This document shows positions 6,003 to 63,154 of a stretch of DNA of 64,000 nt, piece by piece. The notes beneath the pieces were generated by a model that saw only the letters and a program-made list of their open reading frames with translations, did no database searches and was not told the origin of the DNA. Location: contig OZ253470.1 of assembly GCA_965261735.1 (NCBI GenBank), positions 3,200,001 through 3,264,000 of the forward strand, written 5' to 3'. The translations under genes and the position numbers were made by a program. The DNA is from Alphaproteobacteria bacterium. Lineage in GTDB: Bacteria; Pseudomonadota; Alphaproteobacteria; SHVV01. Each line of letters begins with the position of its first letter. The stretch's first letter is position 1.

Positions 6003-6004
6003 CC

Positions 6005-14283: not shown

Positions 14284-16143
14284 ATGGTTACACAGAAAAA
14301 CTTGATCACGCTGTGCTTCGCGACCGTGTTCGCGCTCGGACTCGCGGCGTGCAGCAGCAGCGACGACGGCAGCACGGCCGACGCGCCGACAGGGACCACC
14401 CCGACAGGGACCACCCCGACCACCCCGCCCGCGGCCTCGCCCGTGGAAGTCATGATGGCCCTGACATTGGGGGCGGCGGAGCAAATGGCGCTCCGGGCGG
14501 TGCTGGGAAAGACCGGCGATTCGGACATGTTGCAGATCGCGGCGGGCGAGTCCGAGACCCGGGCGGGTGTGCCGTTCTCCTGCGAGAGCGCCTATCCCTG
14601 CACGGTCACCCTCACCAACAATCTCGGCGTGATCCTGGCCTCGGTGATGACCTACAAGCTGCCGGACGCCGACGACCCGATGGTCACGGCGATGATCCCC
14701 CTGCCGATGGACCCGCTCCACCCGCGCTATACGCTGAATGCGTCGAATGCGGCGAGTGTCCAAGCCATCATCGACGTGGCGTTTGAGGCAGAGGTCACTT
14801 CCGGCACGCCGCCCACACCCGAAGGTGCCCGCGACAATGCGAGCACCACGATAGGCGGTCTGGATATTGCCGGCTTCGGCGTCCACGACATGAGCAAGAC
14901 GACGCTGACCAGCTCTTTTGACCCGAATGTGGCGGACCATATGCCTGTGGACGGCGAAACTGCGGCAATGGGCGGCTCCACGCTGGCGGTTTCGGACAAC
15001 CCGAAAACCGAAACAATCGACGAAAGCACCGTTGTCACGCTGCACGCGGACAAGACCGCCCTGCCGGGTTGGGCTCACAGCAAGGTGCTCTTCGCCGACT
15101 GGGGTGACAGCCAGACGCCGGACAGAGACGGCGGCTACGAGACGGCAGCGCTGCTCTACTCGAGCCATGAAGGGCCTACGCCCCAACCGCTCGACGACAA
15201 GCTGGCGGCCAAGCTCGCCAACCGCGGGGCGTGGTTCATGTTCACCGCCATGCAAGACTTCGATATGGACGGTACTGCGAACCAGAACGTGATCGCGGTG
15301 GCGGCGTCGGGCGACACTGTTGCTGATCAACGGAAGGGCATGATGGTGACTGTCGAGGCACCGCAGCTCTCGACGCTGGCTACCACGCTACAGGGTATGA
15401 GTCGGCACAAAGGGACCTATTTCGGCGCGCCGGTTACCCTCAAGTGCGGCGGCATGGATTGCACCGTAGCCAGGGCAGAAACCCAGGACACGGCGTTCAC
15501 GGTCACCGGTGGCGCATGGCAGATCCTGCCCGACGCCGGAGCGATGATCATGGTTCCCGATCAGGACTACATGGTCTTCGGCGCATGGCTGACCGTGCCG
15601 GATGACATGTCTGGCGAGCACCGGATCGGCGTGTTCCATGACGGCATGCAGAACTACGGGGACGTCGACGAGGCGCTGACGGGCAAGGCCAAGTACGAGG
15701 GCGGCGCGGCTGGCGTCTATCGTGACCGGACTGCCTCCGGGATGTTCACGGCCCGCGCCGTGCTGGAAGCCAATTTTGGCACCGACATGCTGTCGGGCCG
15801 GATCGACAACTTCGCGAACAGCGCCGGCGTCTACTTGGGTACAGACACAGCCCGCTCCCCCAACGATCCGGCAACGGGCGGGGAGAACGATTGGGTCGTG
15901 ACCCTGATGAGCAGCGCAATCGGCACCGGCGGAGTAGTTGCCGATAACACCATGGTCTCCGGCTCTGCCGATGGCGTGGAATGGGCCAGCGGCCAGTGGG
16001 AGGCCACGTTCTACGGGCCGCCCCTCGACGCGGGAGCCCCGACGGAGCCCAGCGGCGTGGCCGGACAGTTCCGGGCGACGTCCGCAATGCGCGGCGTCGT
16101 AGGTGCGTTCGGCGCGCAATATCAGGCGCCCGCGGCCAACTGA
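14284..16143 (+). CDS. Surface lipoprotein 1, TbpB-like C-terminal barrel (putative Slam/T11SS substrate)
   Basis: Lipobox LGLAA-C; GKAKYEGGAAG, FTARAVLEANFG, WEATFYGP..PSGVAGQF..GAFGA. Confidence 0.85.
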   Translation: MVTQKNLITLCFATVFALGLAACSSSDDGSTADAPTGTTPTGTTPTTPPAASPVEVMMALTLGAAEQMALRAVLGKTGDSDMLQIAAGESETRAGVPFSCESAYPCTVTLTNNLGVILASVMTYKLPDADDPMVTAMIPLPMDPLHPRYTLNASNAASVQAIIDVAFEAEVTSGTPPTPEGARDNASTTIGGLDIAGFGVHDMSKTTLTSSFDPNVADHMPVDGETAAMGGSTLAVSDNPKTETIDESTVVTLHADKTALPGWAHSKVLFADWGDSQTPDRDGGYETAALLYSSHEGPTPQPLDDKLAAKLANRGAWFMFTAMQDFDMDGTANQNVIAVAASGDTVADQRKGMMVTVEAPQLSTLATTLQGMSRHKGTYFGAPVTLKCGGMDCTVARAETQDTAFTVTGGAWQILPDAGAMIMVPDQDYMVFGAWLTVPDDMSGEHRIGVFHDGMQNYGDVDEALTGKAKYEGGAAGVYRDRTASGMFTARAVLEANFGTDMLSGRIDNFANSAGVYLGTDTARSPNDPATGGENDWVVTLMSSAIGTGGVVADNTMVSGSADGVEWASGQWEATFYGPPLDAGAPTEPSGVAGQFRATSAMRGVVGAFGAQYQAPAAN

Positions 16144-16168
16144 CCCGGTAACGTGGGTCCAACGATCT

Positions 16169-16197
16169 GGGGCGGCCCTCGGGCCGCCCCTATTTTT
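16169..16197 (+). terminator. Intrinsic terminator after lipoprotein 1
   Basis: ggggcggccc-tc-gggccgcccc followed by tattttt. Confidence 0.7.
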
Positions 16198-16221
16198 CCC
16201 GACCCGGTTCCAGGCCGTCCA

Positions 16222-16380
16222 ATGAAGTCCTTTCCGCATCGGCGCCTGTTTCGCAAGGGCACGATGGCGGTCGACTCCGCAATGCGGACTCCCGACGAGG
16301 ACGAGCGCGAGGCGAAGCTCGACGAAGCCATAGCCGCCTTCCACGCCATCCTGATCCAGCGCCCCGAGCCACGCGCCGGC
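16222..16380 (+). pseudogene. Slam N-terminal remnant
   Basis: LFRKGTMAV..DEDEREAKLDEAIAAFHAILIQRP aligns with LFKDGMVAV..DEARRDALLDKAIAVFHKMLVAQP of the Slam at 18126. Confidence 0.75.
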
Positions 16381-16430
16381 GCACCCGGCGCGAAGATCGA
16401 ATACGCATCTGGCGAGAATGGAGGAATACG

Positions 16431-18041
16431 ATGAAGAGCAAACTGATAATGGCGGCGGTGATCGTCGGATCGTTCGCGCTCGCCGGCTGCAGCGGCGGCG
16501 GCGGCAACGACACGGCGGAGATGATGTCGACCGATCCGGCGCCGCCGACCGAAGAAGAGGAGCGGATCGCCGAGCTCGAAGAGGACCTCGAAGACGCCCA
16601 GGAAGAGGCCGACGAAGCAAACCGGCTGCGCCAGGCGGCCGAGGCGGATGCCCGGCAAGCGGAGGCGGATCGCCAGCGGCTCGAGGGCGAGGCCGAGGCG
16701 CGCCGGAGGGCGGATGCCGCGGCCGACACCCGGAGGGTGATCGTGGGGCTGAACGCCGGCAACGATGGCGAACTTACCCTGGTCGTCGATCTCCCTAACC
16801 TCAAACATGGCGCGCCGGCGCCCGTAACCGCGCCGACCGGGCCATTCACGACGACGACGAGCAGATCGGGACAATGGTCGAAGACGGCGCACACCGCCAG
16901 CACCGGTGATATGCGTGACATGGTGGAAGTCTACTCCGATGTGGAAGCGCCGACGTCCGTTCCGTTCAAGGACAGTATCTACAATGACGACAATGCCGTT
17001 GTGAATGCGGAGGGCATGGTGCTTCCAGGCGGATTCGAATTGGAAACCGCAAACCGAGATGACGTTGCGTCGGGCTCGTTTGATCGCACGAGCGCGCTAG
17101 CCAAGTCTTTCGATATGATGGATCGTGGGGAACACACGACTGCGCAGCAAAGGACCGAAGCGATCAATTTAGCGCAGACCGCTTTGGATAACGATCCAAC
17201 TAACGCTGACAGAAGAGAAGAGCTTGAGACTGCCAGGGCATCGAGGGTCCGCGACACGGATCGCCATCCTTACCGCTGGACCGCCGAAGCGGGGGGCCGC
17301 CTGGGCGGTGCGTCAGGCACATTCCGGTGCGGCACTATGAATTCTGTGGCGGACACCTCGTGCACCGTACAGAACACCGGCGGCGGCTTTCTCTTTGTCG
17401 GGCCGTGGCGTTTCGTTCCGTCAAGCGGCACAGTTGGCGTCAGGGTTGAAGATTCCGAGCACATGTGGTTCGGGTGGTGGGCTCGGCAGACTGTGGAGCA
17501 TGAAGATCCGGCCCATCCAACCGACGACTGGGCGTTCGAGATGGGCCATGGCGGGAATGCTGCGACGACCTTTATCGGGGCCACCGGCACGGCGACCTAT
17601 CAAGGCCAGGCTGCCGGGCGGTACGCGGTCTTCGAGCCAGCCACGGGAGAGTCCAGCCATGGCAGCTTCACCGCCTCCGCGCGCCTGGAGGCCAACTTCG
17701 GCACCGCCACGGATTGGGGTACTGTCTCCGGGACGATCACGGGGTTCAGCAACGATCCGGACTGGTCACTGGCCCTGAAGCAGGCGGACATCGACCCCTC
17801 TGGCGGGACCGTCGGGCTGGGTTCCACAGCTGACGCGGATGGCGTCACCTGGTCGATCGACGGCGTTCCCGACGATAGCGGACAGTGGGAGGCGGGCTTC
17901 TACTCGAATCTGCCAACAGGTACGACCGGGCTCGCACAGGTTCAGCCGCACGGGATCGCCGGCACGTTCGAGGCCCAGTATGACGGTTCCGGGGTAGGCC
18001 CGACGGCCGCGATGATCGGAGCCTTCGGGGCGCACAGGTAG
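16431..18041 (+). CDS. Surface lipoprotein 2, coiled-coil plus TbpB-like barrel
   Basis: GGAGG RBS; lipobox ALAG-C; E/A/R-rich coil; GTATYQGQAAG, FTASARLEANFG, WEAGFY..GIAGTF..GAFGAHR. Confidence 0.87.
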   Translation: MKSKLIMAAVIVGSFALAGCSGGGGNDTAEMMSTDPAPPTEEEERIAELEEDLEDAQEEADEANRLRQAAEADARQAEADRQRLEGEAEARRRADAAADTRRVIVGLNAGNDGELTLVVDLPNLKHGAPAPVTAPTGPFTTTTSRSGQWSKTAHTASTGDMRDMVEVYSDVEAPTSVPFKDSIYNDDNAVVNAEGMVLPGGFELETANRDDVASGSFDRTSALAKSFDMMDRGEHTTAQQRTEAINLAQTALDNDPTNADRREELETARASRVRDTDRHPYRWTAEAGGRLGGASGTFRCGTMNSVADTSCTVQNTGGGFLFVGPWRFVPSSGTVGVRVEDSEHMWFGWWARQTVEHEDPAHPTDDWAFEMGHGGNAATTFIGATGTATYQGQAAGRYAVFEPATGESSHGSFTASARLEANFGTATDWGTVSGTITGFSNDPDWSLALKQADIDPSGGTVGLGSTADADGVTWSIDGVPDDSGQWEAGFYSNLPTGTTGLAQVQPHGIAGTFEAQYDGSGVGPTAAMIGAFGAHR

Positions 18042-18070
18042 TAGCTCATAGCAGCGAGCCGAGTATCACC

Positions 18071-18107
18071 GGGGCGGCGGCGAGAGCCGCTGCCCCTTCT
18101 CTTTCTT
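18071..18107 (+). terminator. Intrinsic terminator between lipoprotein 2 and Slam
   Basis: ggggcggcggc-gaga-gccgctgcccc followed by ttctctttctt. Confidence 0.7.
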
Positions 18108-18125
18108 CGCCGAAACGCATTCCGC

Positions 18126-19442
18126 ATGAACAAAATCCACGCTGCACCGGTCGTGGGCAAAATTCGTCCACTTGCCCCGGGACTGTTCCTTGCCCTGATC
18201 CTTCTGTTCGCCCCTCCGGCCGCCGCACAGGACATGCGCGCGCTGTTCAAGGACGGCATGGTCGCCGTCGAGCAGGCGACCCGGCAGTCCGACGAAGCCC
18301 GCCGCGACGCGCTGCTCGACAAGGCGATCGCCGTCTTCCACAAGATGCTGGTGGCGCAACCCGGGCTGGTCCGCGTCCGCCTCGAGCTCGCCCGCGCGTT
18401 CTTCCTCAAGGGCGAGGACAAGCTGGCGACGCGGCATTTCGAGCAGGTGCTGGCCGGCAATCCGCCCGCCGGGGTGGCGCTCAACGTCAACCGGTTCCTC
18501 AACCTGATGCGCGCGCGCAAGCGCTGGAGCCTGAACCTCGGCATGGCGCTCGCCCCCGACACCAATATCGGCGCCGGCTCGGACGAACGGATCATCTATA
18601 TCGACGTCGGGGGCCAGCTATTGCCCTTCCGCCGCGACGCCGACGAGCTCACCACCTCCGGCATCGGCGTCTCCGCCTGGCTGGGCGGGGAGTACCAGTA
18701 CCCGCTGGGCGAACTCGGAGCGGGGTCCGGGGCAAGCCCCTGGCGGTTGCGCGCCGGCGGCAATCTGTCGCGCAGGGAATACCGGGAGAGCCAGTTCGAC
18801 CAGATGACGCTGACCGGCCATGTCGGGCCGCGCTGGCTGATCGGCCGGACCAGCGAGGCGAGCCTGCTGCTGAGCGGGCTGCATCACTGGACCGGATCGG
18901 GGATCGAGCAGCCCTCGCATCACGATATCGGCTTCCGCGTCGAGGGACGCCACCGGATGGGCCCGCGGACGACGCTGAACGCGCGGCTGTCGTGGCACCG
19001 CCGGAAATACGTCGAGCAGGAGGGTCGCGACGGGCCGATCGCCGATATCTCGGTGGGCGCGGGCTGGCTGGCGTCGCAGACGCTGCGCATCGACGCGAGC
19101 CTCGGCTGGGGGCGCGAGCGGACCGAGACGGAGCGCTGGCGCAACTCACGCCGCTCGGTGCGGCTCGGCGCGACGGCGGTGCTGCCCTGGGGCTTCACCG
19201 TCGGCGGCTCGGGCGCGCTGCGCTGGACCGCGTATGAGGGCAACTGGGCCCCCTTCGTGCCGGACGGCGGGGAGCGCAGCGACCTGACCCGCACCATCCG
19301 CCTGTTCGCGCATAACCGGGCGCTGACCCTCGAAGGGTTCAGCCCGCAGATCTCGGTGACCCAGGAACAGCGCACCACCAACGCCCAGCTCCACGACTAC
19401 GAGCGCATCTCCGGCGAGCTCCGCTTCGTCCGCCTGTTCTGA
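18126..19442 (+). CDS. Surface lipoprotein assembly modifier (Slam/DUF560; type XI secretion translocon)
   Basis: Signal peptide; TPR motif VRVRLELARAFF; barrel starting WSL..LAPDTNI; terminal GELRFVRLF; downstream of a TbpB-like gene. Confidence 0.88.
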   Translation: MNKIHAAPVVGKIRPLAPGLFLALILLFAPPAAAQDMRALFKDGMVAVEQATRQSDEARRDALLDKAIAVFHKMLVAQPGLVRVRLELARAFFLKGEDKLATRHFEQVLAGNPPAGVALNVNRFLNLMRARKRWSLNLGMALAPDTNIGAGSDERIIYIDVGGQLLPFRRDADELTTSGIGVSAWLGGEYQYPLGELGAGSGASPWRLRAGGNLSRREYRESQFDQMTLTGHVGPRWLIGRTSEASLLLSGLHHWTGSGIEQPSHHDIGFRVEGRHRMGPRTTLNARLSWHRRKYVEQEGRDGPIADISVGAGWLASQTLRIDASLGWGRERTETERWRNSRRSVRLGATAVLPWGFTVGGSGALRWTAYEGNWAPFVPDGGERSDLTRTIRLFAHNRALTLEGFSPQISVTQEQRTTNAQLHDYERISGELRFVRLF

Positions 19443-19548: not shown

Positions 19549-20031
19549 GTGCCGGGTCCCCAACTCGAAGGCATACGCATTCTGGGCAAGGGCCGGCGCG
19601 ATCGCGAACTGCCGCTGTGGAAGGAAACGAAGGCTGTTCTCAATGAGTGGCTCGACGTCCGGCCGCCGGTCAACAACCGCTACCTCTTCCTCAACGCACG
19701 GGGACGGGTGATGAGCCCGGACGGCTTCGCGTACATCCTCAGCCAGCATGTCGCCAGGGCTATGCTGGCGGTTCCATCGCTCAAGACCAAGCGGGTAACC
19801 CCGCATGTAATCCGTCACTCGACCGCAATGACGATCCTGCATGCCACCGGGGACGTCCGGAAGGTCTCGATCTGGCTCGGCCACGCAGACCTCAAGACCA
19901 CCGAAGTGTACCTCCATGCCAGCCCGGCCGAGAAACTGGAAATCCTTGCGGTCAACGCGCCGCCATCGATCCGGCCCGGGGCCTTCCCTGGTGCAAAGGA
20001 CAGTCTGATGAGCATCCTCGGCGGCAAGTGA
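19549..20031 (+). pseudogene. RIT-type XerD-like recombinase C-terminal fragment (RitC-like)
   Basis: GKGRRDR..TPHVIRHSTA..WLGHADLKTTEVY, followed by a TAATGCCG palindromic end. Confidence 0.8.
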
Positions 20032-20276: not shown

Positions 20277-23189
20277 TGTCCGTCGTCAAAACATTTGGGA
20301 CTGTTGAGTCTGTTTCATAAGGGAGGATCTGGCTCATCTTGGATTGATGTAAGCCGCTTGTTGTTGATGGTTCAAGCGGCGGTGTTGGATAGTCAGTTTC
20401 TTGATCCTGTTCCTCCTTTCAATGATGGCGGTATCGCGCCCGAAGTAGGCATCGGCGGGGGTTACATTCGCGAGGCTCTCGTGGTAGCGGCGGTTGTTGT
20501 AGTGATCGACGAAAGCGCCGATCTGGTTTTCGAGATCGCCTGGTAGATAATAGTTTTCCAGCAGGATCCAGTTCTTCAGCGTTTGATGCCAGCGCTCGAT
20601 CTTGCCCTGGGTTTGCGGGTGATACGGTGCGCCCCGAACGTGATCCATACCGTGGTCCTCGAGCCATTCCGCGAGATCACCGGAGATATAGGACGAGCCG
20701 TTGTCGCTGAGCAGCCTCGGCTTGTGGACGACATTGGCGCGGTTGCAGCCTGAGGCTTCTAGCGCCAACTTCAGTGTTGCCGTCACATCGTCCGCCGTCA
20801 TGTTGGTGCAGAGCTTCCAAGCAATGATGTAGCGGGAATAGTCGTCCAGGATGGTCGACAGGTAAAACCAGCCCCAGCCGATGACCTTGAGATAGGTGAA
20901 GTCGGTCTGCCACAGCTGGTTCGGCGCCGTGGTCTTGTCGCGGAACTCATCGGCTGCCTTGATGACCACGAAAGCGGGGCTGGTGATCAGGTCGTGGGCC
21001 TTGAGAAGCCGGCAAACCGAGGCTTCCGAGACAAAATAGCCCCTGGTGTCCGTAAACCTGACGGCCAGTTCCCGGGGCGACAGTTGCGTCTCCTCCAGGG
21101 CAAGATCGATGATCTGCCCCCGGACATCATCCGGGATACGGTTCCACACCCGGCCTGGGCTGCTGTTGCGATCCTCAAGACCGGCGTCGCCAAAGGCCAG
21201 AAAGCGATCGTACCAGCGATAAAAGGTGGTCTTCGGAATGCCCAGCTTGTCCAAAGTGGACCCGACGCCCAGGTGGGACTGCTCGACCAGGCGAATGATC
21301 TCCAGCTTCTCGGATGCGGGATACCTCATTCCTCGTCTCCCCCATCCGCGATCATGCTTTTTTTGAAAAGCCGGTTCTCCAGCGAAAGTTCGGCGACCAA
21401 CTCCTTCAAGTCGCGCATCTCCTGGCGCAGAACTTTAACCTCGCCCGAGGTCGCTTGGCGCCCGGTGTCGCCGGCGAGCCGCTTCTTGCCCGCTTCCAAA
21501 AACTCTTTCGACCAGCTGTAATACAGACCCTCGGCGATGCCCTCGCGGCGGCACAAGGCGGCGATGCTCTCCTCGCCGCGCAGGCCCGACACCACAATCC
21601 GGATCTTCTCGGCTGTGTCTCGAAAGTGGTGGAAATTTGAGGATGGCGTAATCTCCGGGTGACAAGACAACCACCCAATCGGCGGCTAGCACCGCCAAGG
21701 AGATCACGCCATGAAGAACACTACCGAGACTTCCGCGCTTTCGCTACTGGCCAATGACGCCGGCTATGATCCGATCGAGGACCGGCTGCGGGAGAACATC
21801 AGATCCACGATCGAGGCCGTTTTTGAGGAGGAACTTGCGCAGTTTCTCGGGCGCTGCCGATACGGTCGAGAGGACGCGCTTCGGCAAGGGTATCGGAACG
21901 GGCACCGGGAGCGGCAACTGACGGGGACATTCGGGACCGAGAGGGTGAGCGTGCCGCGTGCGCGGATCGTTGAGGAAGACGGTCGGGCGTCGGAATGGCG
22001 TTCGCGGGCGCTGCCGCGCTACCAGCGGCTGACCAGAAAGGCCGAGGCGCTGATCGCTTCGGTGTATCTGTCCGGAACCAACACGCGGCGGGTGAAACGC
22101 GCGCTGTTCGGGCTCTTCCGGGGTGCTGTGAGCAAGGACGTTGTGAGCCGGGCGTGGCGCAAGGTGAAGGTCGATTGGGACGCCTGGTGCAGCCGTGGCC
22201 TCGCGGATGAGGATATCGTTCGGCTGATCCTTGACGGCACTGTGATCAAGACCCGACTGGACCGCAAGGCCACCAACATCTCGGTTCTCGCGGCTATAGG
22301 GGTGCGCCGGGATGGCCAGAAGGTCTTGCTTTCGATCGGGAATATGGGCGGAGAAAGCCAGGCGGCGTGGCGCCAGTTCCTCGACGACCTTGATGCGCGT
22401 GGACTGAAACGGCCCGGGTTTGTCATCGTCGATGGCGCGCCGGGACTGGAGGCGGCTCTGTCGGCGCTTTGGGGCGATGACCTTCCCGTTCAACGCTGCA
22501 CCGTGCACAAGCACCGCAACCTTCTGGGTCATGCTCCCAAACACATGCATGACGAGCTGAGCGAAGATTACCGCGATATGATCTATGCCGACACTGCCTC
22601 CGAGGTGGAAACCCGCCGCAAGGCGTTTGTCCGCAAGTGGCGGCTGAAATGCAGGGCCGTCGCGGACAGCCTCGCAGAAGCGGGCGACAAGCTCTTTACC
22701 TTCACGCGCCTGTCCAAGAGCCAATGGAAATCAGCCCGAACGACCAACGCCATTGAGCGTCTCAACGAGGAGTTCAAGCGCCGGATCAAAACACAGACCG
22801 TGCTGCCGTGTCCCGAAACAGTGCCGATGCTCCTCTGGGCACTCCTCGCTTCCGGCCAAATCCAGATGCGCAAAGTCGATGGATGGGAAACCCTCGATCA
22901 GCTAATCGCCGACGAAACCCTTGACCGCGCAGCCTGACCGCCGCAAAACTCAACCCGCTCGGAGAGGCGCCAAAACCAATTTCCACCACTTTCGAGACAC
23001 AACCATCTTCTCCTCAGCCGAATACTGCTTGCGTGTCTTGCGGCGAATATCCCGAACAGCTCTCTCCGCCGGGTCGTTCTTGCTCATTGATTTCTGTCTC
23101 ATCTTCGTTCCCTTCGGTCACTACGATGAGCCAGAAATCCTCCGTTATGCAATTACCTCAATTTGTCCCAAAGGCGCTGACGTCAGACA
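20277..23189 (-). mobile_element. IS3-family element (orfA 23102-21326, orfB 21329-20334) with orfA interrupted by IS256
   Basis: Imperfect IRs tgtccgtcgtca..tttgggac / tgtctgacgtca..tttgggac; DDE motifs WQTDFT, LSDNG, GKIERWH; no TSD. Confidence 0.9.
21611..23004 (+). mobile_element. IS256-family element A, copy 1 (transposase 21711-22937)
   Basis: IRs ggctgtgtctcgaaagtggtggaaatt; 8-bp TSD atcttctc; motifs QRCTVH and TTNAIERLN. Confidence 0.95.
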
Positions 23190-23672
23190 AGCTGGTCGAC
23201 GGCCGTGCCGCAGGTGACGCTGTCTTCCTCGACAGGCGCCGACAACCGTTCACCCGGTTCGGCGTCTACTAGGTCGTCGAGCGCTGCGCGGCCCAAGTGC
23301 CGGCGTTGGCCGGGAGAAAAATAACGCCCCATGTGCTGAGGCATACGACCGCCTGCCACCTGGTGTTCGCCGGCGTGGACATCAACACTGTGCGTGCGTG
23401 GCTCGGGCATTCCTCCATCGATACCACCAACATCTATGCCGAAATCAACCTCAAGATGAAAGCCGAGGCGATGGCACTGTGCGATGTCGCGGAACCCGCC
23501 CCGGGGCGCCCCTGGAAGGAGGACAAAGACTTGATGGCGTTCCTGAACTCCTATTGAGCACACCAGATTATGTTGCGGCGATCCGAACTCCTTCTCCAGC
23601 AAACTCAAGGAACCGGCGGTAGCTCATCGAAGGATCCGTCAGCGCCGCAACATATGACCCCAGACAGCATAA
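23190..23672 (+). pseudogene. Right half of mini-RIT (recombinase C-terminus plus right IR), copy 1
   Basis: TPHVLRH..WLGHSSIDTTNIY; IR cgccgcaacatatgaccccagacagcataa; in-frame TAG upstream. Confidence 0.8.
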
Positions 23673-24193
23673 GATCCCCAATACTGAATGCCGGAGCCGG
23701 CGATCTTCACGCCGGTGCAGACGATGATCTCGTCCCGCTCGGGCCGCATCCGCTGCACGGCCCCGAGCGACATGACCTGGCGCGGTTGCTTGCGGGTCTT
23801 CGACTTGCCCTTGCCGGGCCAACGGACGATCTCGCCGTCGAACGTCGACTTGTACCGCTCCACCACATAGCGGTTATCGTCGAGACCGCGCCTGAACATA
23901 TGGATAAGAAAGGTGCGCGCGTTGGCGCCGGGCGCCGTGACTGTCTGCATGATGCCGCCTCCCCTGGGATCGGTAGTTGCGAGCGGCGGGGACGCTCTCC
24001 GGGCCATCCATCCGCCGCCCTGCTCCCGGCCAGCCTCGGCCTCTTCATGGCGCGCCGGCGTGAAAGTGGCTTGTGATGGGGACATGGCGCAACGCAGGCC
24101 AGCTGCCCTGGCGCCCAGAGTCGGCACGGGTCTGTAATATATTCGGAGATTCCGAGTATACTAGGGGCGCAAGGTGATTTTATATTTTGGGCC

Positions 24194-24697
24194 ATGTCAG
24201 AGTCAGCGCTCATATTCGACACTCACGAGGACATCCAGGAACTGGTGAAGTCCGGCATGCCGGAACCCCAGGCTGAAACCGTGGTGCGTCAGCGTGTCCG
24301 GCTGCTGGAACGCAACCTCGCCACCAAGGCTGATATCGCAGCAACCAACGCCGATATCGAGACGCTGCGGTTGGAGACCAAGGCTGATATTGCAGCAACC
24401 AACGCCAATATCGAGACGCTGCGGCAGGAGACCAAGGCCGATATCGCGGCAACCAACGCCAATATCGAGACGCTGCGGCAGGAGACCAAGGCCGATATCG
24501 CGGCAACCAACGCCAATATCGAGACGCTGCGGCAGGAGACCAAGGCCGATATCGCGGCAACCAACGCCAATATCGAGACGCTGCGGCAGGAGACCGAAAA
24601 GCTGATAGCTCTCGGCAAGAACGATATTATCAAGTGGGTTGTCGGCGCCAATCTCGGGGTCGCCGCCTTGATCGTGGCCGCAATCAAACTCCTCTAA
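24194..24697 (+). CDS. DUF1640/CCDC90-like membrane-anchored coiled-coil protein, copy 1 (5 x 18-aa repeats)
   Basis: FDTH..L..SGMPEPQAE head, LATKADI, 54-bp tandem repeats, C-terminal TM IIKWVVG..AAIKLL. Confidence 0.82.
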   Translation: MSESALIFDTHEDIQELVKSGMPEPQAETVVRQRVRLLERNLATKADIAATNADIETLRLETKADIAATNANIETLRQETKADIAATNANIETLRQETKADIAATNANIETLRQETKADIAATNANIETLRQETEKLIALGKNDIIKWVVGANLGVAALIVAAIKLL

Positions 24698-24716
24698 TCG
24701 CCGGCCTGGATCACGC

Positions 24717-24895
24717 TCAGTCAGCATCCAGCGTGGCGCCCGCGGGCAGTATGTCCGCGCCGATGCTGGCGGCGACCCTGACCGCCGATAGCTTGATGGA
24801 ATCGCGCGCGAGATGGGCGTAGCGGACCGTCGTCTGGATTTTGGTGTGCCCGAGCAGCTTCCCGATCATGCTCAGGCTCTCGCCGAGCGCCAGGG
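24717..24895 (-). pseudogene. Tyrosine integrase extreme 3' remnant (also at 39586-39764 and 49796-49862)
   Basis: LALGESLSMIGKLLGHTKIQTTVRYAHLARDS..SIGADILP. Confidence 0.8.
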
Positions 24896-25271
24896 TACCA
24901 CGATGAGGCCTCCAGACCCCAACACGACCTCCACAAGATATGGTTGAAAAACGCCTCGCGGGCGACCAAGCCAAACCGGTGCCGTCGACAGCGCCTCTGG
25001 CTGGATCGATGTCGAAACCACCCTGGGCGGGGCGCCACGACCGGCACACCAAACGCGCCCAGCCCAAAAAGAACATCCGGCTCCGGCCCCTCAGAAAGAC
25101 CGGAAGCGAATTCTCAATCAGTGAATCTACGCCGCGACCGGCGGGTTCGAGATGACTGCCTCAGTCAAATTGGGGGCGTGCCCGCCGCAGACTCGCGCCT
25201 CTCTACACGGCACCACCAAATCTGGACCCGAACGGCCGCTGACGAATTCCGACGACAAACGCGCGCCCGGA
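24896..25271. repeat. Non-coding dispersed repeat D, copy 1 (also 39765-40210 and 56873-57460)
   Basis: Near-identical block starting taccacgatgaggcctccagacccc. Confidence 0.9.
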
Positions 25272-26738
25272 GGCGGCGGCGGTTCGATGACCAGCATGAT
25301 GGACGGCAATGGTGGGCCCCCTGGAGAGCCGCCTGCGCCGGGCCCGGCGTGTGCCACATCGGCAACGTCTCAGGCTTGCGTGGACGACAAGAAGATGGTC
25401 ATGGACGAGGCCAAGAAGGCGCTCGACGCTGCGAAGGCCGACGAGAACTCGACCCAGAAGCAGATCGCGGACGCTCAGAAGGCGTATGACGACGCCAAGA
25501 TGGCGCACATGACCGCGATGGAGGGCCGGGCCACGTACCTCGCCATGCAGGCGCCGATGTACGACATGAAGGCCATGGCCAAGGCGATCATGACACCGGG
25601 CGATACTGATCCTGTTGTGATTGATGGCGGCATGCCGCCGATGGGCGACAAGGCTTATGCCAAGGCGACATGGCCGGTCGGCGACGTGGCCGGCTTCGCA
25701 GAGGCCGTTTATGAGGACGCTTCAGAGGGCACGGCCATCATCACCCACACCAACAAGCAGGCCGCGAAGGGAGTAACCTACAAGAAGCTGCTGATGCCCA
25801 ACACCGCTCCTAACGCCCCGGCCGGGTATATCTATATGACCCGCGCGGCCATGGGGATTGATGGCGATTCCTTAGCCGGTGTGCTCACGCTGTTGGAGAA
25901 CGTGCCGCCGACTGCGATGATCTCGTTCGCCCATGATGCCGGCATCGGCGCGGTGAGGACGTTCAGTGACGTTGATGCCACCACCGATGTGGATGAAAGC
26001 GTGGTGTCGATTATGGGCACCTTCCACGGTGTGCAGGGGACCTATGCATGCGGCACTGCGGGGGAACAAAACAATGCATGCATGGCAGGTACCGATGAGA
26101 AGGGTGAGCTTATCACGCTCAGTGCAGATTGGACCTTCACGCCAGCCAAGGGGGCGGAGGCCGGAATCATCGCCGGCGCACAGACGGACGTCGAATACCT
26201 CGACTTCGGCTATTGGGTGACCACTTCAGACGATCCGACATCGTATTCGGTGGGCATGTTCGCCAAGGGCATGGGAACAATGAGTACCGGCAATTTTGGT
26301 ATTCTCACCGGTGACCAGGACGCAGCAATCTCGGCAACCTACAAGGGCGGCGCCGCTGGTCTGTACGCGAAACGTGAGTACAGCGGCACCAGCGATGGTG
26401 ACTTGCTTGGCGCAGGCCGCTTCACGGCAACGGCAGAGCTGAAGGCCTACTTCGGCACCGGTGACCACACCGCCAACGACGACCAAAACACGATCAGCGG
26501 CATGATCAGCAGCTTCATGGATGACGGTTCGCCGATCGACGCCACATGGCGGGTGAAACTTGAGGCGCTCGACTTCGACACAGACAACGATGGCTCCTTC
26601 GGAGGAGGCACCGATGATTCATGGTCCGGTCAGTTCTTCGGTGGCAGCGCAACGGCGGCACCAACCGCTGTCACTGGCGAGTTCACGCACGATTTCGACA
26701 ATGGCGAAGTGATCGGCGCGTTCGGGGCGACCCGCTAG
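25272..26738 (+). pseudogene. Surface lipoprotein 3, TbpB-like, lacking signal peptide and lipobox
   Basis: Starts at GGGGSMTSMMD fused to repeat D; YLDFGYW, ATYKGGAAG, FTATAELKAYFG, WSGQFFG..GAFGATR. Confidence 0.8.
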
Positions 26739-26812
26739 GTGGTAGCAGCCTGACCGGACGGGGACGGGTTCCACCTGCAGGTACCCGGCCTCTCCGGCCC
26801 GGCGTTTCAGCG

Positions 26813-26847
26813 AAGGGGGTGGCAGAGATGTCATCCCCTTTTTCTTT
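26813..26847 (+). terminator. Intrinsic terminator between lipoprotein 3 and Slam
   Basis: aagggggtggca-gaga-tgtcatcccctt followed by tttcttt. Confidence 0.7.
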
Positions 26848-48751: not shown

Positions 48752-49272
48752 GATCCCCAATACTGAATGCCGGAGCCGGCGATCTTCACGCCGGTGCAGA
48801 CGATGATCTCGTCCCGCTCGGGCCGCATCCGCTGCACGGCCCCGAGCGACATGACCTGGCGCGGTTGCTTGCCGGTCTTCGACTTGCCCTTGCCGGGCCA
48901 ACGGACGATCTCGCCGTCGAACGTCGACTTGTACCGCTCCACCACATAGCGGTTATCGTCGAGACCGCGCCTGAACATATGGATGAGAAAGGTGCGCGCG
49001 TTGGCGCCGGGCGCCGTGACTGTCTGCATGATGCCGCCTCCCCTGGGATCGGTAGTTGCGAGCGGCGGGGACGCTCTCCGGGCCATCCATCCGCCGCCCT
49101 GCTCCCGGCCAGCCTCGGCCTCTTCATGGCGCGCCGGCGTGAAAGTGGCTTGTGATGGGGACATGGCGCAACGCAGGCCAGCTGCCCTGGCGCCCAGGGT
49201 CGGCACGGGTTTGTAATATATTCGGAGATTCCGAGTATACTAGGGGCGCAAGGTGATTTTATATTTTGGGCC

Positions 49273-49776: not shown

Positions 49777-50134
49777 TCGCCGGCCTGGATCACGCTCAGT
49801 CAGCATCCAGCGTGGCGCCCGCAGGCAGTATGTCCGCGCCGATGCTGGCGGCGACCCTGGCCGTGCCCGGAACCTTCTCCGGCGCAAAAGACGACCTGAT
49901 GAGGGTTCTTTGCGGGAAGTGACGCTCAGAATTAATGCCGCACGACGCCTATCGAGCAGCCAGCGTACCGCCATCCGTTCAGCCCCATTCAATTCGCCGG
50001 ATCGGGTTGAGGCACCCGCCGGATTGGTCCATTCTGTCGTCTGGGAGACATGAAGCCGCCACGCTTCCGCTCTCCGTCCTGTTGCGCGCCGGGGGCGATG
50101 GTTCCGAAAGGCGCGCGGCGTCGCGCGCGAGGAC

Positions 50135-54066: not shown

Positions 54067-54521
54067 GTGACCGGAGCGGGCGAGAATGTTTCGAAGCTCG
54101 ATGACGCCCTCATGGGTCCCTCGACACATATCGGGTCCATAGCGTCAATGGAAGCCGAACAAGCGGCACCAGCCCCGGCGGCAGCGACACCAACTCCGTG
54201 TTGATTCTGGCCCATTGACAAGGTCACCGCATGACGGACCGCTCCGATGCCCGTGATCGGATTCGTCGACCTCGACCGGCGATTTCGCGACCGGACAGAC
54301 GCGGAACTCGAGCATAGCGAACTCGAAGACGCCGAGACTTTCGCTTCCCTGGATGGGCTGGGGCTTGGCTCGAGCATTGGCTGGACGGCGCTCCTCGAAC
54401 ACGCCCGGGTCGTCCTTCCGTGATCCGCTCGTGGCGCAACGCGGCCAGTCGTAAGGTCTGGGAAGGAGAGACGCCGAACCGGTTTCGCGGCCTGCACGGG
54501 TGAAGGTAATAAGCGGCCACT

Positions 54522-54814
54522 GAGGGGGGAGTGCGGTTGGTTGCACGCGCCGGCCTCAGTCGCCGGCCGGACGATTCCACGGCTCGGCGTTACCAATACG
54601 TCCGGTGGGGGCGTATGATTTCCGAATCTCAAAAACCCGGGCACTGTCGGATTCGAGCGACATGCGCGCGCAGGGATACGCGGCAGTTGGAATTCATCCG
54701 CTTCCGGAGTGCTGACGGAGAGCAAATTCGAGCGCTACCGGAACTCCCAGAGGGTGGAAAAATATATCAGTATATCAGTGGGTTAGGAGAGGCCCTGGCG
54801 GGCGCAGCGGCCCT
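54522..54814. repeat. 293-bp inverted repeat, right copy
   Basis: Reverse complement of 8388-8680. Confidence 0.9.
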
Positions 54815-56740: not shown

Positions 56741-57199
56741 TACAAATGTGGTATTCTATACCAGAAATACAAGGATAAATGAGGAGCAGCTCCCACCTAT
56801 CCTAGCAAATTCGCCATTTGCAAGGATCCAGCGGGCTACGCCAAGCGTGATCGCGGGCTGCAGATGTCAGGATACCACGATGAGGCCTCCAGACCCCAAC
56901 ACGACCTCCACAAGATATGGTTGAAAAACGCCTCGCGGGCGACCAAGCCAAACCGGTGCCGTCTACAGCGCCTCTGGCTGGATCGATGTCGAAACCACCC
57001 TGGGCGGGGCGCCACGACCGGCACACCAAACGCGCCCAGCCCAAAAAGAACATCCGGCTCCGGCCCCTCAGAAAGACCGGAAGCGAATTCTCAATCAGTG
57101 AATCTACGCCGCGACCGGCGGGTTCGAGATGACTGCCTCAGTCAACTTGGGGGCGTGCCCGCCGCAGACTCGCGCCTCTCTACACGGCACCACCAAATC

Positions 57200-57334
57200 G
57201 TATCCGTTCGGCGAAGCCGTGATGGTCAGGGCGGACGGAGGCGGTGAACGGCCGCCTTGGCGGGAAATCGGCCGGCTGCGCGCTCCGACCTCTCGCGCCA
57301 GCCAGACGGTTCCACGGCTTGAACGAACGGATAC
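57200..57334. mobile_element. 135-bp MITE inserted in repeat D
   Basis: 11-bp IR gtatccgttcg/cgaacggatac; ccaaatc duplicated; empty site present in the other two copies of repeat D. Confidence 0.85.
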
Positions 57335-57460
57335 CCAAATCTGGACCCGAACGGCCGCTGACGGATTCCGACGACAAACGCGCGCCCGGATGCCCTGGAG
57401 TTGGATTCAATCCGCTTTCGGCTTGATTACGGCACGCCCTACCGGGTCCTGCGGACGGCA

Positions 57461-57988
57461 CGCCGCAAGGCGTTTGTCCGCAAGTGACGGCTGAAATGCA
57501 GGGCCGTCGCGGACAGCCTCGCAGAAGCGGGCGACAAGCTCTTTACCTTCACGCGCCTGTCCAAGAGCCAATGGAAATCAGCCCGAACGACCAACGCCAT
57601 TGAGCGTCTCAACGAGGAGTTCAAGCGCCGGATCAAAACACAGACCGTGCTGCCGTGTCCCGAAACAGTGCCGATACTCCTCTGGGCGCTCCTCGCTTCC
57701 GGCCAAATCCAGATGCGCAAAGTCGATGGATGGGAAACCCTCGATCAGCTAATCGCCGACGAAACCCTTGACCGCGCGGCCTGACCGCCGCAAAACTCAA
57801 CCCGCTCGGAGAGGCGCCAAAACCAATTTCCACCACTTTCGAGACACAACCCATCGATGAGGTCTACAACTCACGACGTCTCCACTCCGCGCTCGGATAT
57901 CTGAGCCCGGTACAGTTCGAGGATCAACATGCCCGGCATACGGTCAAGGCCGCCGAGTGATCCTGTCCGGACATAGGGGCGCACTCCA
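57461..57988 (+). mobile_element. 3' fragment of IS256-A (57461-57851) adjoining an IS3-family 3' end
   Basis: Matches about 22614-23004 with a TGA; then [17 protein letters not shown] and an IR ending ggggcgcactcca. Confidence 0.85.
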
Positions 57989-59502: not shown

Positions 59503-62203
59503 TCTATGGACGGCTCTCCCGTTGCATCTATGGACGGCTCTCCCGTTGCAAGGGATGTTGATCTGAGCGACGTGGGTCAGTTGCAAACATCTATCCGGCA
59601 TCACCCATAGTGGGGTGCCCAAATGGGGAATCCGCGCGCACCCGCCTCTACAGCTGGTAGGCCTCAGAGGCCTCGATAATAGTCAGGCTCGTGGCGCGCC
59701 GGTCCGACCTGTGCAGCTCATTTCGTCATCGTCTCGCAACCTCGTAGTGGGCCCTCAGCCAGCGGCGCGGTAGGCTCCGCCGCTCCGAAGCACGGCCCAG
59801 ATGATCCGTGCGTTCTTGTTGGCGACGGCCACCGTGGCCCGGTTGAAGCCACGCCGCCGGTGAAGCTGGTTGACCCAGGTGTTGAAGGGATCCGCCTTTC
59901 CTGCCGCCGTGCGGACGACGGATCGGGCGCCATGCACGAGCAGGGATCTCAGGTGCTGGCTGCCGCGTTTGGAGATGCCGAGCAGGACGGTGCGCTGACC
60001 GCTGGAGTGCTGGCGTGGGACAAGCCCGACCCAAGCGGCGAGGTGGCGGCCGTTCTTGAACTCCGTACCATCGCCGATGGCGGCGATGACCGCGGTGGCG
60101 GTCTTGGGCCCCACCCCCTTGATGCGGGCGATCCGCTGGCAGTCCTCCGACGCGCGGAACACTCGCTCGATCTTCTTGTCGAAGCTGGCGATCCTGAGAT
60201 CCAGGTCCCTGAACAGGTCGTGGAGTTCGCCGATCGCCTCGCGGGCCAGGGCGGTCAACTCGTTCTCCTCATCGGTGAGGATCTCCGGAATCATCCGACG
60301 CGCCCTGGTGATGCTCTTTGGGAAGGCGATGCCGCGATCGAGCAGGAGCCCGCGGATCTGACTGACCACGGCGGTGCGGTGGTTGACCATGCGCTGACGA
60401 GCCCGATGCAGAGCCTGGATGTCCTGCTGCTCGATCGACTTCTTCGGCACGAAGCGCATGTGCGCCTGTCGGGCTTCTGGCGCCGCACGAAGGGCTTCAC
60501 GTATTGGGGGCTGATAATCTTCACCTTGTGCCCGAGCTCCTCGAACTTCCGTTGCCAATAAAAGGCCCCGGTGCAGGCTTCGATGGCGATGGTGCAGGGC
60601 TCGATCTGGACGATGACCTGGAGCAGCTGGTCGCGCATCACGCGACGCTTCAGAATGAGGCGGCCGTTACGGTGGTTGTGTCTCGAAAGTGGTGGAAATT
60701 GGTTTTGGCGCCTCTCCGAGCGGGTTGAGTTTTGCGGCGGTCAGGCTGCGCGGTCAAGGGTTTCGTCGGCGATTAGCTGATCGAGGGTTTCCCATCCATC
60801 GACTTTGCGCATCTGGATTTGGCCGGAAGCGAGGAGTGCCCAGAGGAGCATCGGCACTGTTTCGGGACACGGCAGCACGGTCTGTGTTTTGATCCGGCGC
60901 TTGAACTCCTCGTTGAGACGCTCAATGGCGTTGGTCGTTCGGGCTGATTTCCATTGGCTCTTGGACAGGCGCGTGAAGGTAAAGAGCTTGTCGCCCGCTT
61001 CTGCGAGGCTGTCCGCGACGGCCCTGCATTTCAGCCGCCACTTGCGGACAAACGCCTTGCGGCGGGTTTCCACCTCGGAGGCAGTGTCGGCATAGATCAT
61101 ATCGCGGTAATCTTCGCTCAGCTCGTCATGCATGTGTTTGGGAGCATGACCCAGAAGGTTGCGGTGCTTGTGCACGGTGCAGCGTTGAACGGGAAGGTCA
61201 TCGCCCCAAAGCGCCGACAGAGCCGCCTCCAGTCCCGGCGCGCCATCGACGATGACAAACCCGGGCCGTTTCAGTCCACGCGCATCAAGGTCGTCGAGGA
61301 ACTGGCGCCACGCCGCCTGGCTTTCTCCGCCCATATTCCCGATCGAAAGCAAGACCTTCTGGCCATCCCGGCGCACCCCTATAGCCGCGAGAACCGAGAT
61401 GTTGGTGGCCTTGCGGTCCAGTCGGGTCTTGATCACAGTGCCGTCAAGGATCAGCCGAACGATATCCTCATCCGCGAGGCCACGGCTGCACCAGGCGTCC
61501 CAATCGACCTTCACCTTGCGCCACGCCCGGCTCACAACGTCCTTGCTCACAGCACCCCGGAAGAGCCCGAACAGCGCGCGTTTCACCCGCCGCGTGTTGG
61601 TTCCGGACAGATACACCGAAGCGATCAGCGCCTCGGCCTTTCTGGTCAGCCGCTGGTAGCGCGGCAGCGCCCGCGAACGCCATTCCGACGCCCGACCGTC
61701 TTCCTCAACGATCCGCGCACGCGGCACGCTCACCCTCTCGGTCCCGAATGTCCCCGTCAGTTGCCGCTCCCGGTGCCCGTTCCGATACCCTTGCCGAAGC
61801 GCGTCCTCTCGACCGTATCGGCAGCGCCCGAGAAACTGCGCAAGTTCCTCCTCAAAAACGGCCTCGATCGTGGATCTGATGTTCTCCCGCAGCCGGTCCT
61901 CGAGCGGATCATAGCCGGCGTCATTGGCCAGTAGCGAAAGCGCGGAAGTCTCGGTAGTGTTCTTCATGGCGTGATCTCCTTGGCGGTGCTAGCCGCCGAT
62001 TGGGTGGTTGTCTTGTCACCCGGAGATTACGCCATCCTCAAATTTCCACCACTTTCGAGACACAGCCGTTACGGTTGACGCCATGGAGTTGGAACACAGT
62101 CTTGGCGATATCGATGCCGAGTGTCTCGATGGTCATGGTCTCCTCCTCGATACGTTCAGGCCCTCAGGATGAAGCGGTGGAGGGAGAGCCGTCCATCCCA
62201 TTA
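59503..62203 (-). mobile_element. IS110/IS1111 element (transposase 62136-59755, frameshifted and split by IS256)
   Basis: Sub-terminal IR atggacggctctccc 7 nt and 3 nt from the ends; no TSD; LGIDIAK, IEAC, GVGPKTA, SSG, NKNAR. Confidence 0.9.
60674..62067 (-). mobile_element. IS256-family element A, copy 3 (transposase 61967-60741)
   Basis: Same IRs as copy 1; TSD gttacggt; 1394 bp. Confidence 0.95.
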
Positions 62204-62764
62204 GCTGGCGCAAGGAGTACGGCGGGATGAGCGGCGATCAGCGTCGCCGCCTCAAGGAGCTTGAGAAGGAGAACGAGCGGCTGCGCCGCGCGGTCTCGGA
62301 CCTGACGCTGAACAAGCAGATTCTCAAGGAGGCGGCCCGGGGAAACTTGTGAGCCCCTCGCGTCGTCGCCAGTGCATCGACCATGTCCGTGGCCGGCTCG
62401 GGATCTCGGAACGGTGTGCCTGCCGGGTGCTGGGGCAGCACCGCTCGACCCAGCGCCGTATCCCGCGCGGCCACGACGACGAGGATCGTCTGGTCGCGGA
62501 CATGATCGAGCTGGCTCGCCGCTATGGCCGTTACGGCTATCGCCGGATCGCGGCTCTGCTGCGCGACACCGGCTGGCAGGTCAAACGACAAGCGGGTCGA
62601 ACGCCTGTGGCGGCGCGAGGGGCTGAAGGTGCCCGGCAAGCAACCGAAGCGGGGCCGGCTCTGGCTCAACGACGTATCCTGCGTCCGGCTCCGCGCCGAG
62701 CGGGCCGACCATGTCTGATCCTATGACTTTGTGCATCACCGGACCCATGATGGCCGGGCCTTTC

Positions 62765-62960
62765 GTATCCGAGATAGTGGTAGCGGGCGACGAACTCGTT
62801 CCAGAGCTTGCTCTCCCGGGTGCCGCGCACGACGGGGCGCAGGTCGAGCGGACGGACCTCGCCGAGGGTCGTCGGGGCCGGGAACAGCGGCGGTTCGGTG
62901 TCCAGCCCGAAGACGATCGGCCCGGGCCGGTTCTGCTGTCCCTGCGGCGCCGGCAGGGCG
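62765..62960 (-). pseudogene. DUF4338 (DruA-like) fragment
   Basis: LDLRPV...SKLWNEFVARYHYLG motif. Confidence 0.6.
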
Positions 62961-62992
62961 ATCAGACCGTCCCTGTGCATGGCCAGCATGGC

Positions 62993-63154
62993 GGCCTGAC
63001 GCGCTCGTTCCGGCTCAACGCCTACAATCGCGCCTTCACGGTGGAGGGGTTCAGCCCGCAGGTCTCCGTTGTGCAGGAGGAGCGGACCTCGAACGCGCAG
63101 CTTCACGACTACAAGCGCATCTACGGCGAGCTGAGATTCGTGCGCCTGTTCTGA
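62993..63154 (+). pseudogene. Slam C-terminal remnant
   Basis: LTRSFRLNAYNRAFTVEGFSPQ..NAQLHDYKRIYGELRFVRLF. Confidence 0.88.

Follow-up and report, generated by a model that had tools for sequence, protein, structure and literature searches.

Slam translocons and divergent surface lipoproteins among decayed copies of a putative mobilizable element in an uncultured alphaproteobacterium

Slam translocons of the type 11 secretion system (T11SS) are known mostly from a few animal pathogens, in which each translocon serves a small and fixed set of cargo proteins; Slam1 and Slam2 of Neisseria act on TbpB, LbpB, fHbp and HpuA, and HsmA of Acinetobacter acts on HphA. Integrative mobilizable and integrative conjugative elements (IMEs and ICEs) are known to accrete in tandem and to decay to cis-mobilizable remnants, as in the ICESt1/ICESt3 model. 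A recent study described the co-occurrence of cluster 1 T11SS genes with transposases and tRNA-synthetase genes and proposed mobile islands (PMC12282271, 2025); the same paper defines a Pls-like cargo group, combining a helical N-terminus with a barrel, and the TepS translocon (Grossman et al. 2025; PMC12282271). Here, we analysed a 64,000-nucleotide window (positions 3200001–3264000) of the single-contig, 5.03-Mb genome G000 (ca. 65% G+C) of an alphaproteobacterium. This window contains five surface-lipoprotein genes (lp1–lp5), two intact Slam genes (SlamA and SlamB), Slam remnants and a tandem pair of P4-type integrase genes (int1 and int2; Table 1). Based on gene content and comparison with relatives (genomes G001, G002, etc.; related loci are given L numbers), the window probably formed by tandem accretion and decay of integrative, likely mobilizable, elements each carrying a Slam and its cargo, rather than as an integron-like array.

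Layout of the element in related genomes

A search with SlamB across 41 genomes including G000 returned matches in 11 genomes, with 11 Slam matches in two regions of G002, which belongs to the same family as G000 but to another genus, and one ortholog in G001. From these relatives, 215 kb of G002 and 30 kb of G001 were compared with the window. In a 135-kb region of G002, a TrwC block and a block of Slam plus lipoprotein 3′ end each occurred five times at 84%–91% nucleotide identity, and four integrase pairs, three of them closely related and one distant, were interspersed among these blocks. A single conserved block comprised both integrases, the intergenic region and the 5′ end of the lipoprotein gene, and about 600 bp inside the lipoprotein gene had no detectable similarity between copies. 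A Pfam analysis of 36 open reading frames (ORFs), corresponding to 1.5 units, identified Phage_integrase twice (P4-type), SSB, YAcAr, TrwC together with AAA_30 (1832 aa), SlipAM and TbpB_B_D, along with variable cargo (AbiEii, a DruA-like gene, NYN and OmpA). The Slam and TbpB_B_D lipoprotein genes faced the relaxase gene, and the repeated unit measured ca. 28 kb. The moving unit therefore seems to be the whole ca. 28-kb element with its relaxase and not a lipoprotein–Slam cassette; judging from the relatives, the lipoprotein–Slam pair would be its fixed cargo.

A wider scan using one genome per species yielded 43 loci, almost all in genomes labelled as metagenome-assembled genomes (MAGs) of Alphaproteobacteria or Rhodospirillales. 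Neighbourhoods were counted by eye on a tblastn map for those 33 loci, from 21 other assemblies, whose upstream flank was complete over 10 kb. A lipoprotein match lay directly upstream of Slam in 26 of the 33 loci. In 17 loci, from 11 of the 21 assemblies, two integrase genes in tandem were located no more than 10 kb upstream, divergent from the lipoprotein gene in 13 and on the same strand in four; TrwC, YAcAr or SSB lay downstream of Slam in at least nine. Locus L062 had a compact layout of two integrases, lipoprotein and Slam, facing TrwC, YAcAr and SSB. Integrase and relaxase genes were thus found on one unit, the combination that defines an IME, in the G002 units and in L062, which we regard as candidate IMEs. 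Multi-copy arrays also recurred, with seven, six, three, three and one full-length Slam genes, mostly clustered, in five assemblies chosen for having several matches. The seven copies (G041) lay within 99 kb, and the assembly with a single Slam had two remnants alongside it. Across the related loci, gene order and orientation varied considerably.

These observations suggest the following model for an element family hosted by a clade of uncultured Alphaproteobacteria. An intact element would consist of a tandem P4-type integrase pair and, across a conserved intergenic region of ca. 200–270 bp, a divergently oriented surface-lipoprotein gene, followed by a terminator-like hairpin and a Slam gene; some copies would add a DUF3187 gene and a second lipoprotein gene. 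The lipoprotein–Slam block would face a TrwC-type relaxase-helicase, a YAcAr (SLOG) gene and SSB, with variable cargo making up the remainder. Each element that arrives would supply an exporter of its own together with a lipoprotein whose signal peptide and C-terminal barrel are conserved and whose body differs; the Slam is predicted to display this lipoprotein on the cell surface. Copies would pile up close together and then be broken by insertion sequences (ISs) and by recombination between repeated backbone pieces. Of this model, the identities of the genes, their shared arrangement in relatives, the arrays and their decay are direct observations, and integration, tandem accretion, mobilization and Slam-dependent display are inferred.

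Lipoproteins and translocons of the window

Genes were called from ORFs and third-position G+C heuristics, and the lipoproteins were numbered by ORF (lp1, 14284; lp2, 16431; lp3, 25152/25272; lp4, 43437; lp5, 58987). The signal peptide ended in LAAC or LAGC in four of the five (lp1, lp2, lp4 and lp5), and all five ended in GAFGA followed by 2–8 residues. Identity among lp1, lp2 and lp3 was ca. 30%–33% over the last 240–300 residues, with no similarity in the parts upstream; lp4 and lp5 were more distant from the others than these three were from each other. In addition, lp1 and lp4 shared 99 nucleotides around the signal peptide at 89% identity (14268–14366 vs. 43421–43519).

A C-terminal eight-stranded barrel of the TbpB_B_D type was found in all five proteins: in lp4 and lp5 by Pfam, in lp1, lp2 and lp3 by profile comparison, and in lp2 also by fold. 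The Pfam family TbpB_B_D exceeded its cut-off (26 bits) in lp4 (56.1 bits) and lp5 (29.7 bits) only; the search reached an E-value of only 0.08 for lp3 and returned nothing for lp1 or lp2. However, a profile of the lp1/2/3-type C-terminus (10 rows) aligned to an lp4-type profile (six rows) with a probability of 95.4% (E = 1.9e-8). Four of the 10 profile members gave weak TbpB_B_D matches by themselves (best E = 0.011), and the profile found no match among PDB sequences at E-values up to 1. The lp2 C-terminus had 94 matches among 5.8 billion proteins, nearly all of them unnamed metagenome proteins; the only named ones were two hypothetical proteins of Rhodospirillales-type MAGs. An AlphaFold model of lp2 built on 90 aligned rows (predicted local distance difference test, pLDDT, 89.6; predicted template modelling score 0.76) comprised a helix at residues 41–108, beta domains and the C-terminal barrel, and replaced an earlier run on the C-terminus with 10 sequences that was discarded at a pLDDT of 43.2. 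When this model was compared with the PDB using Foldseek, 44 matches were obtained at E-values up to 0.001, with fHbp first and hemophilin/HphA, the NHBA C-domain, HpuA and LbpB among the others, all of which we take to be Slam cargo.

Both intact Slam genes passed the PF04575 (SlipAM) cut-off of 22 bits. For TPR_Slam (PF24575), the two proteins scored 21.7 and 22.1 bits, below the cut-off of 35.2 bits, with the aligned region present. Further Slam loci were sought with a hidden Markov model (HMM) built from 11 copies. The SlipAM and barrel matches bear out the assignment in an earlier note, made from the sequence alone, of Slam/T11SS translocons with TbpB-barrel cargo. That note had counted five divergent lipoproteins and six Slam loci (two intact, four remnants). 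All five lipoproteins stood, except that position 25272, taken as the start of lp3, proved to be a junction with no start codon; of the Slam loci, the two intact genes and three remnants were clear, whereas the fourth remnant was weak in the HMM search. The latter lay ca. 100 nucleotides after lp4, and in BLASTP it matched the N-terminal part of the G002 Slam encoded after lp4-like genes. Close Slam homologues in the 5.03-Mb genome were confined to the window. Separately, a distant homologue 28% identical to SlamB occurred at ca. 863002–864069 of G000, and IS256 and IS1595 copies lay no more than about 2 kb from it.

The order of lipoprotein, hairpin and Slam, which the note had described as recurrent, was also retained in relatives. 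In the window, hairpins followed lp1–lp4; in the relatives, a pattern search detected a GAFGA-tailed ORF within 900 nucleotides upstream in 31 of 46 related Slam matches, and a stem with a T-rich tail, differing in sequence, was recognised by eye in at least 17 of those 31 loci. Folding energies did not separate the hairpins from random 150-nucleotide pieces of this GC-rich DNA (mean −20.5, sd 4.2), and a search of the window against Rfam gave no match. The hairpins are thus putative terminators argued for by their form (GC-rich stem, T-rich tail) and position.

Decay was evident in most modules. Only lp1, lp2 and SlamA together look like a fully usable module, and the loss of the Slam between lp1 and lp2 would have left one operon with two cargo genes. 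The lp3 ORF had no signal peptide; its first 43 codons belonged to a repeat that was also found at 40021–40149 and 57129–57206. Because this shared repeat stops at ca. 25274 within the ORF, lp3 is cut at its 5′ end and is predicted to be dead unless another start is used. Among the lipoprotein genes of the window, only lp4, whose N-terminal region is Ala-rich, still adjoined its integrase pair, and its own Slam would be reduced to the weak stub; lp5 had no Slam beside it. The relaxase was present in the window only as C-terminal stubs, one being a 444-aa ORF (30948–32282, minus strand) that matched the last 416 residues of the 1832-aa TrwC of G002.

The DUF3187 gene was located directly 3′ of Slam in several relatives (e.g., G002 L009, L010 and L012), followed by a second lipoprotein gene. 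From this arrangement, the DUF3187 protein may be a third partner of this Slam type.

Origin of the copies, recombinases and repeats

A Slam tree of 57 rows (quick search, with support from the Shimodaira–Hasegawa-like approximate likelihood ratio test, SH-aLRT) placed SlamB with L022 and L023 (support 87–89) inside a 38-row clade. SlamA (branch length 1.08) and the C-terminal remnant at 33653–34093 fell in an 11-row clade (support 98) apart from SlamB, the remnant being nested with G002 copies in a seven-row clade (support 99). The three placeable Slams of the window therefore represent at least two clades, each shared with other genomes. Because the SlamB clade differs from that of SlamA and the remnant, the tree speaks for separate arrival of these copies, or for paralogy of great age, rather than for a recent duplication in place. 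Given this apparent separate acquisition and the mobile DNA around the genes, the phrase "mobile, accreting repertoire" used in the earlier note appears fair; the part that did not hold was the reshuffling of cassettes, for which no border site was found. Comparison with related genomes showed arrays of varied order but pointed to the whole element, not a cassette, as the unit that moves. Additional copies of the backbone without Slam at ca. 270, 1905, 3332 (with full-length TrwC) and 3469 kb of G000 suggest that the element family is active genome-wide.

It could be argued instead that the Slam–lipoprotein genes are an old chromosomal family that duplicated and diverged locally, and that the integrases, relaxase pieces and ISs are unrelated debris. 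The genome indeed holds P4-type integrases by the dozen, whether as copies or as fragments, along with at least 220 IS copies (39 IS256, 165 IS1595 and 17 IS5), 16 of the 33 related loci had no integrase pair within 10 kb, and the backbone repeats of the window were 92%–99% identical. Nevertheless, we regard this explanation as unlikely. The integrase pair was divergent from the lipoprotein gene in 13 of the 33 loci across many assemblies, at a distance of ca. 200–270 bp in 12 aligned copies; such pairs numbered only about three in 5 Mb of G000; the relaxase faced Slam in several genomes; and the Slams of the window belonged to different clades shared with other genomes.

Nine tyrosine-recombinase loci occurred in the window, of which int1 and int2 were intact and seven were fragments or split genes; the claim that recombinase genes or their ends lie among the modules was thus upheld, in line with the tandem pairs of the related loci. 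Whether they form a dedicated system, in which lipoprotein–Slam units are captured, excised and reordered at specific sites as in integrons or shufflons, is another matter. Most modules have recombinase genes or ends beside them, related loci vary widely in the order and orientation of their modules, and the shared 5′ end of lp1 and lp4 together with the 3′ barrel could anchor exchange. However, a self-comparison of the window revealed no repeated recombination site at module borders (very short or degenerate sites could escape it), and similarity at Slam 3′ ends stopped at the stop codon. A GCGYATTGGAGCRY motif in the int2–lipoprotein intergenic region occurred only once in the window, before lp4, against 0.38 occurrences expected by chance. 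A search for recombinase-in-trio (RIT) elements, which the note had invoked, found the int1–int2 tandem pair and fragments and never three recombinase genes in a row. The recombinase ends at 24744–24893 and 39613–39762 were the natural 3′ neighbour of the backbone repeat rather than cassette borders, and G002 keeps the lipoprotein 5′ end, intergenic region and both integrases together. A cassette system is therefore very improbable. The scrambling of the window was located beside IS elements and repeated backbone pieces of 1.6–2 kb, which occurred five times at 92%–99% identity, corresponded to backbone genes adjoining int1 and had homologous pieces in G002.

The density of ISs was rejected as a hallmark of the island, given that the window has only three of the 39 IS256 (plus one fragment), one of the 165 IS1595 and one of the 17 IS5 copies. 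As a separate observation, the IS256-family element of the window was 99.5%–99.9% identical in three genomes of different genera (G000, G001 and G002).

Errors in the assembly of a metagenome-derived genome might also generate repeats and remnants, since the region is rich in 98%–100% identical repeats and contigs from public sequencing runs contained many odd joints. These joints were themselves rejected as evidence of rearrangement because most had sides shorter than 30 letters or derived from repeats. The genome is a single contig, and two contigs from run X1, which may be the source sample and hence not independent, agreed without differences: one of 3720 letters spanned 14417–18136 (lp1, the Slam stub, lp2 and the start of SlamA), and one of 1336 letters covered lp3. 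Moreover, separately assembled relatives held the same kinds of array, making misassembly extremely improbable. Contig depth in public runs was ca. 900–6400 in IS bins (IS256, ca. 900–1600) compared with ca. 10 for the lipoprotein genes, because many IS copies exist in the community. Three public runs contained a form lacking the IS256 at 21610–23005, with eight shared letters at the joint. Contigs from an RNA run (X19) covered parts of the region and have no bearing on transcription of the lipoprotein and Slam genes.

Several findings weigh against tandem accretion and decay of mobilizable elements. The loci counted above are kin and partly overlapping, so the counts overstate their independence; nearly half of them have no nearby integrase pair, and the single ortholog of G001 lacked an integrase or TrwC within the 30 kb examined. 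No tRNA gene was found in the window or at 36 related loci scanned, no flanking direct repeats or att sites were identified and the element ends were not found, and no excised or empty-site form was seen. Because neither a tRNA gene nor a flanking direct repeat was found, integration is argued from gene content alone. VirB4 was not found in the G000 genome, and any transfer would therefore need a helper. The high identity of the backbone repeats implies that part of the multiplicity arose by recent duplication within the genome. In addition, the periodic array cannot tell whether a lipoprotein–Slam block sits beside the integrases of its own element or at the far end of its neighbour. Finally, although the Slam downstream of each of the five lp4-like genes of G002 was of a type of its own (33% identical to SlamB; separate clade, support 100), L046, L047, L048 and L053 pair an lp4-like gene with a downstream type-1 Slam, so the pairing of types is not strict.

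Other features of the window were recorded alongside these. The int2–lipoprotein intergenic region contained several short conserved motifs, including GCGYATTGGAGCRY and repeated CAGCG-like words, which could be operator or integrase arm sites. Copies of a CCDC90-like coiled-coil ORF in the backbone pieces (24194–24697, 39117–39566 and 49273–49776) had internal 54-bp tandem repeats of varying number. Segments of the left island edge (8388–8680, 9298–9378 and 10015–10175, together with the 3′ terminus of a PAS-domain gene) were repeated in inverted order at 54172–54814 with 96%–99% identity, about 45 kb away, which suggests a large inversion or duplication. Three type II toxin–antitoxin pairs lay among the remnants (9300–9877, 30056–30665 and 34316–34999), comprising HigB with an HTH protein, ParD with ParE, and Phd with a PIN protein. 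An 875-aa subtilase (Peptidase_S8; 10727–13354, plus strand) is encoded immediately before the SSB stub and lp1 and is possibly element cargo. Within the island, at 50135–52678 (plus strand), an 847-aa protein consisted almost entirely of MORN repeats (31 stretches, E = 1.5e-221), and the underlying DNA was strongly self-repetitive.

Table 1. Positions of lipoprotein, translocon, element and mobile-DNA features in the window
Feature	Position	Strand	Evidence or remark
lp1 lipoprotein, 619 aa	14284–16143	+	Lipobox, GAFGA tail; row of the lp1/2/3-type C-terminal profile
lp2 lipoprotein, 536 aa	16431–18041	+	Long helix, beta domains, C-terminal barrel
lp3 lipoprotein body without signal peptide	25275–26738 (ORF 25152–26738)	+	5′ end replaced by repeat
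lp4 lipoprotein, 666 aa	43437–45437	+	TbpB_B_D 6.9e-15; lipobox
lp5 lipoprotein, 311 aa	58052–58987	-	TbpB_B_D 1e-6, 29.7 bits; lipobox
SlamA, intact, 438 aa, own signal peptide	18126–19442	+	PF04575 3.3e-13, 50.2 bits
SlamB, intact, 459 aa from signal-peptide Met	26876–28255 (ORF from 26621)	+	PF04575 4.5e-18, 66.2 bits, full profile length
Slam N-terminal (TPR) stub, ca. 60 aa, between lp1 and lp2	16240–16431	+	tblastn 44%–50% identity; Slam HMM E 4.6e-9
Slam C-terminal remnant, 147 aa	33653–34093	-	tblastn, Slam HMM; PF04575 41.8 bits
Slam C-terminal remnant, 61 aa	62969–63151	+	tblastn, Slam HMM
Possible sixth Slam stub, signal-peptide region only, weak	45536–45757	+	HMM E 0.93; BLASTP E 0.004
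Terminator-like hairpin after lp1	16169–16190	+	Nine GC pairs, then T-rich tail
Terminator-like hairpin after lp2	18071–18096	+	GC-rich stem, T-rich tail
Terminator-like hairpin after lp3	26812–26841	+	GC-rich stem, T-rich tail
Hairpin after lp4	45469–45498	+	Perfect 13-bp stem
DUF3187 protein	32449–33600	-	Pfam 2e-38; ca. 90% nucleotide identity to G002 copies
SSB fragment	13365–13796 (stub 13422–13748)	+	Pfam SSB 2e-16; 83% identical to G002-unit SSB
TrwC-type relaxase-helicase C-terminal remnant	30948–32334	-	75% identical to G002 TrwC residues 1415–1830
Second TrwC C-terminal remnant, running off window	63407–64000	-	
P4-type integrase C-terminal fragment, near left edge of island	8656–9117	+	Phage_integrase 2.9e-14; 68% identical to int1 residues 275–390
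int1, intact P4-type integrase	40783–41955	-	Phage_integrase, Arm-DNA-bind_3, SAM-like domains
int2, intact P4-type integrase	41989–43182, ORF readable to 43317	-	59% identical to int1
P4-type integrase fragments	24744–24893, 39613–39762		
Second-type tyrosine recombinase, split over two reading frames	47489–48636	+	Pfam
Second-type tyrosine recombinase fragment	19549–20031	+	Phage_integrase 2.5e-17
Other second-type recombinase fragments	23297–23557, 35050–35427		
Divergent int2–lp4 intergenic region	43183–43436		Conserved across genomes; motif 43285–43298
Repeated backbone piece	23190–25274		Recombinase C-fragment, 162-aa ORF, CCDC90-like ORF, int1 3′ end
Other backbone-piece copies	48269–49863, 38877–40143, 35151–35831, 56868–57461		
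rve-type IS (HTH_Tnp_1 ORF and rve ORF)	20334–21670	-	
IS256-family element	21610–23005	+	Transposase_mut
IS256-family copy	37558–38876	+	
IS256-family copy	60673–62068	-	
Second IS256-family type transposase	28773–29975	+	
IS5-type transposase	36122–37480	-	
IS1595-family element	46088–47200	+	
IS110-family transposase fragment	59755–60558	-	

Implications and comparison with known systems

A defined mobile element carrying a translocon and its cargo would provide a concrete vehicle for the published suggestion of T11SS mobile islands. In one uncultured clade, up to 7–11 translocons per genome accompany lipoproteins that keep the signal peptide and barrel and change the body. Such natural translocon–cargo pairs could be used to ask what sets Slam specificity, and they suggest a testable route to a varied repertoire of bacterial surface proteins. 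The window itself is of lower value because most of its modules are broken. A further idea, quite improbable in our estimation, is that the lipoprotein–Slam block is not passive cargo and takes part in the life cycle of the element through recipient recognition, mating-pair stabilisation or sibling exclusion, the element displaying its own hypervariable lipoprotein from a constant position between the integrase and relaxase genes. If so, the differing lipoprotein bodies of sibling elements would reflect a diversified exclusion or recognition code, and the int2–lipoprotein control region would couple display to excision.

The earlier note had supposed that no such system was described for T11SS; mobile islands had in fact already been proposed (PMC12282271), and what we did not find described, as far as the accessible text of that paper goes, is a defined Slam-carrying element. 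Our literature search on Slam-carrying integrative elements returned general statements only and no defined element, although the supplements of PMC12282271 may list some of the proteins. Relative to its accessible text, the integrase pair, the relaxase, the defined element and the multi-copy array are described here and not there. According to that text, Pls-like cargo begins with an alpha-helix that is long, charged and rich in repeats and ends in a TbpB-type barrel (PMC12282271); compared by description, lp2, with its helix, and lp4, with its Ala-rich N-terminal region, share this helix-plus-barrel architecture.

As in known Slam/T11SS loci, the gene for a signal-peptide-bearing DUF560/SlipAM barrel directly follows that for its cargo, a lipobox protein whose C-terminal barrel ends in GAFGA. 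Unlike those loci, this one has no adjoining TonB-dependent receptor, its host is an uncultured alphaproteobacterium, and relatives carry up to 7–11 Slam genes per genome in arrays. With integrons and shufflons, it shares a row of varied surface-protein genes beside tyrosine recombinases, whereas repeated attC-like or sfx-like border sites are absent and the repeated unit measures ca. 28 kb. There is also a resemblance to accreting IMEs and ICEs, in the tyrosine integrases and relaxase without a full mating-pore set, the adjacent related copies and the truncated copies. In contrast to these, the putative element described here has a tandem pair of paralogous integrases and, as its cargo, a translocon with a hypervariable surface lipoprotein.

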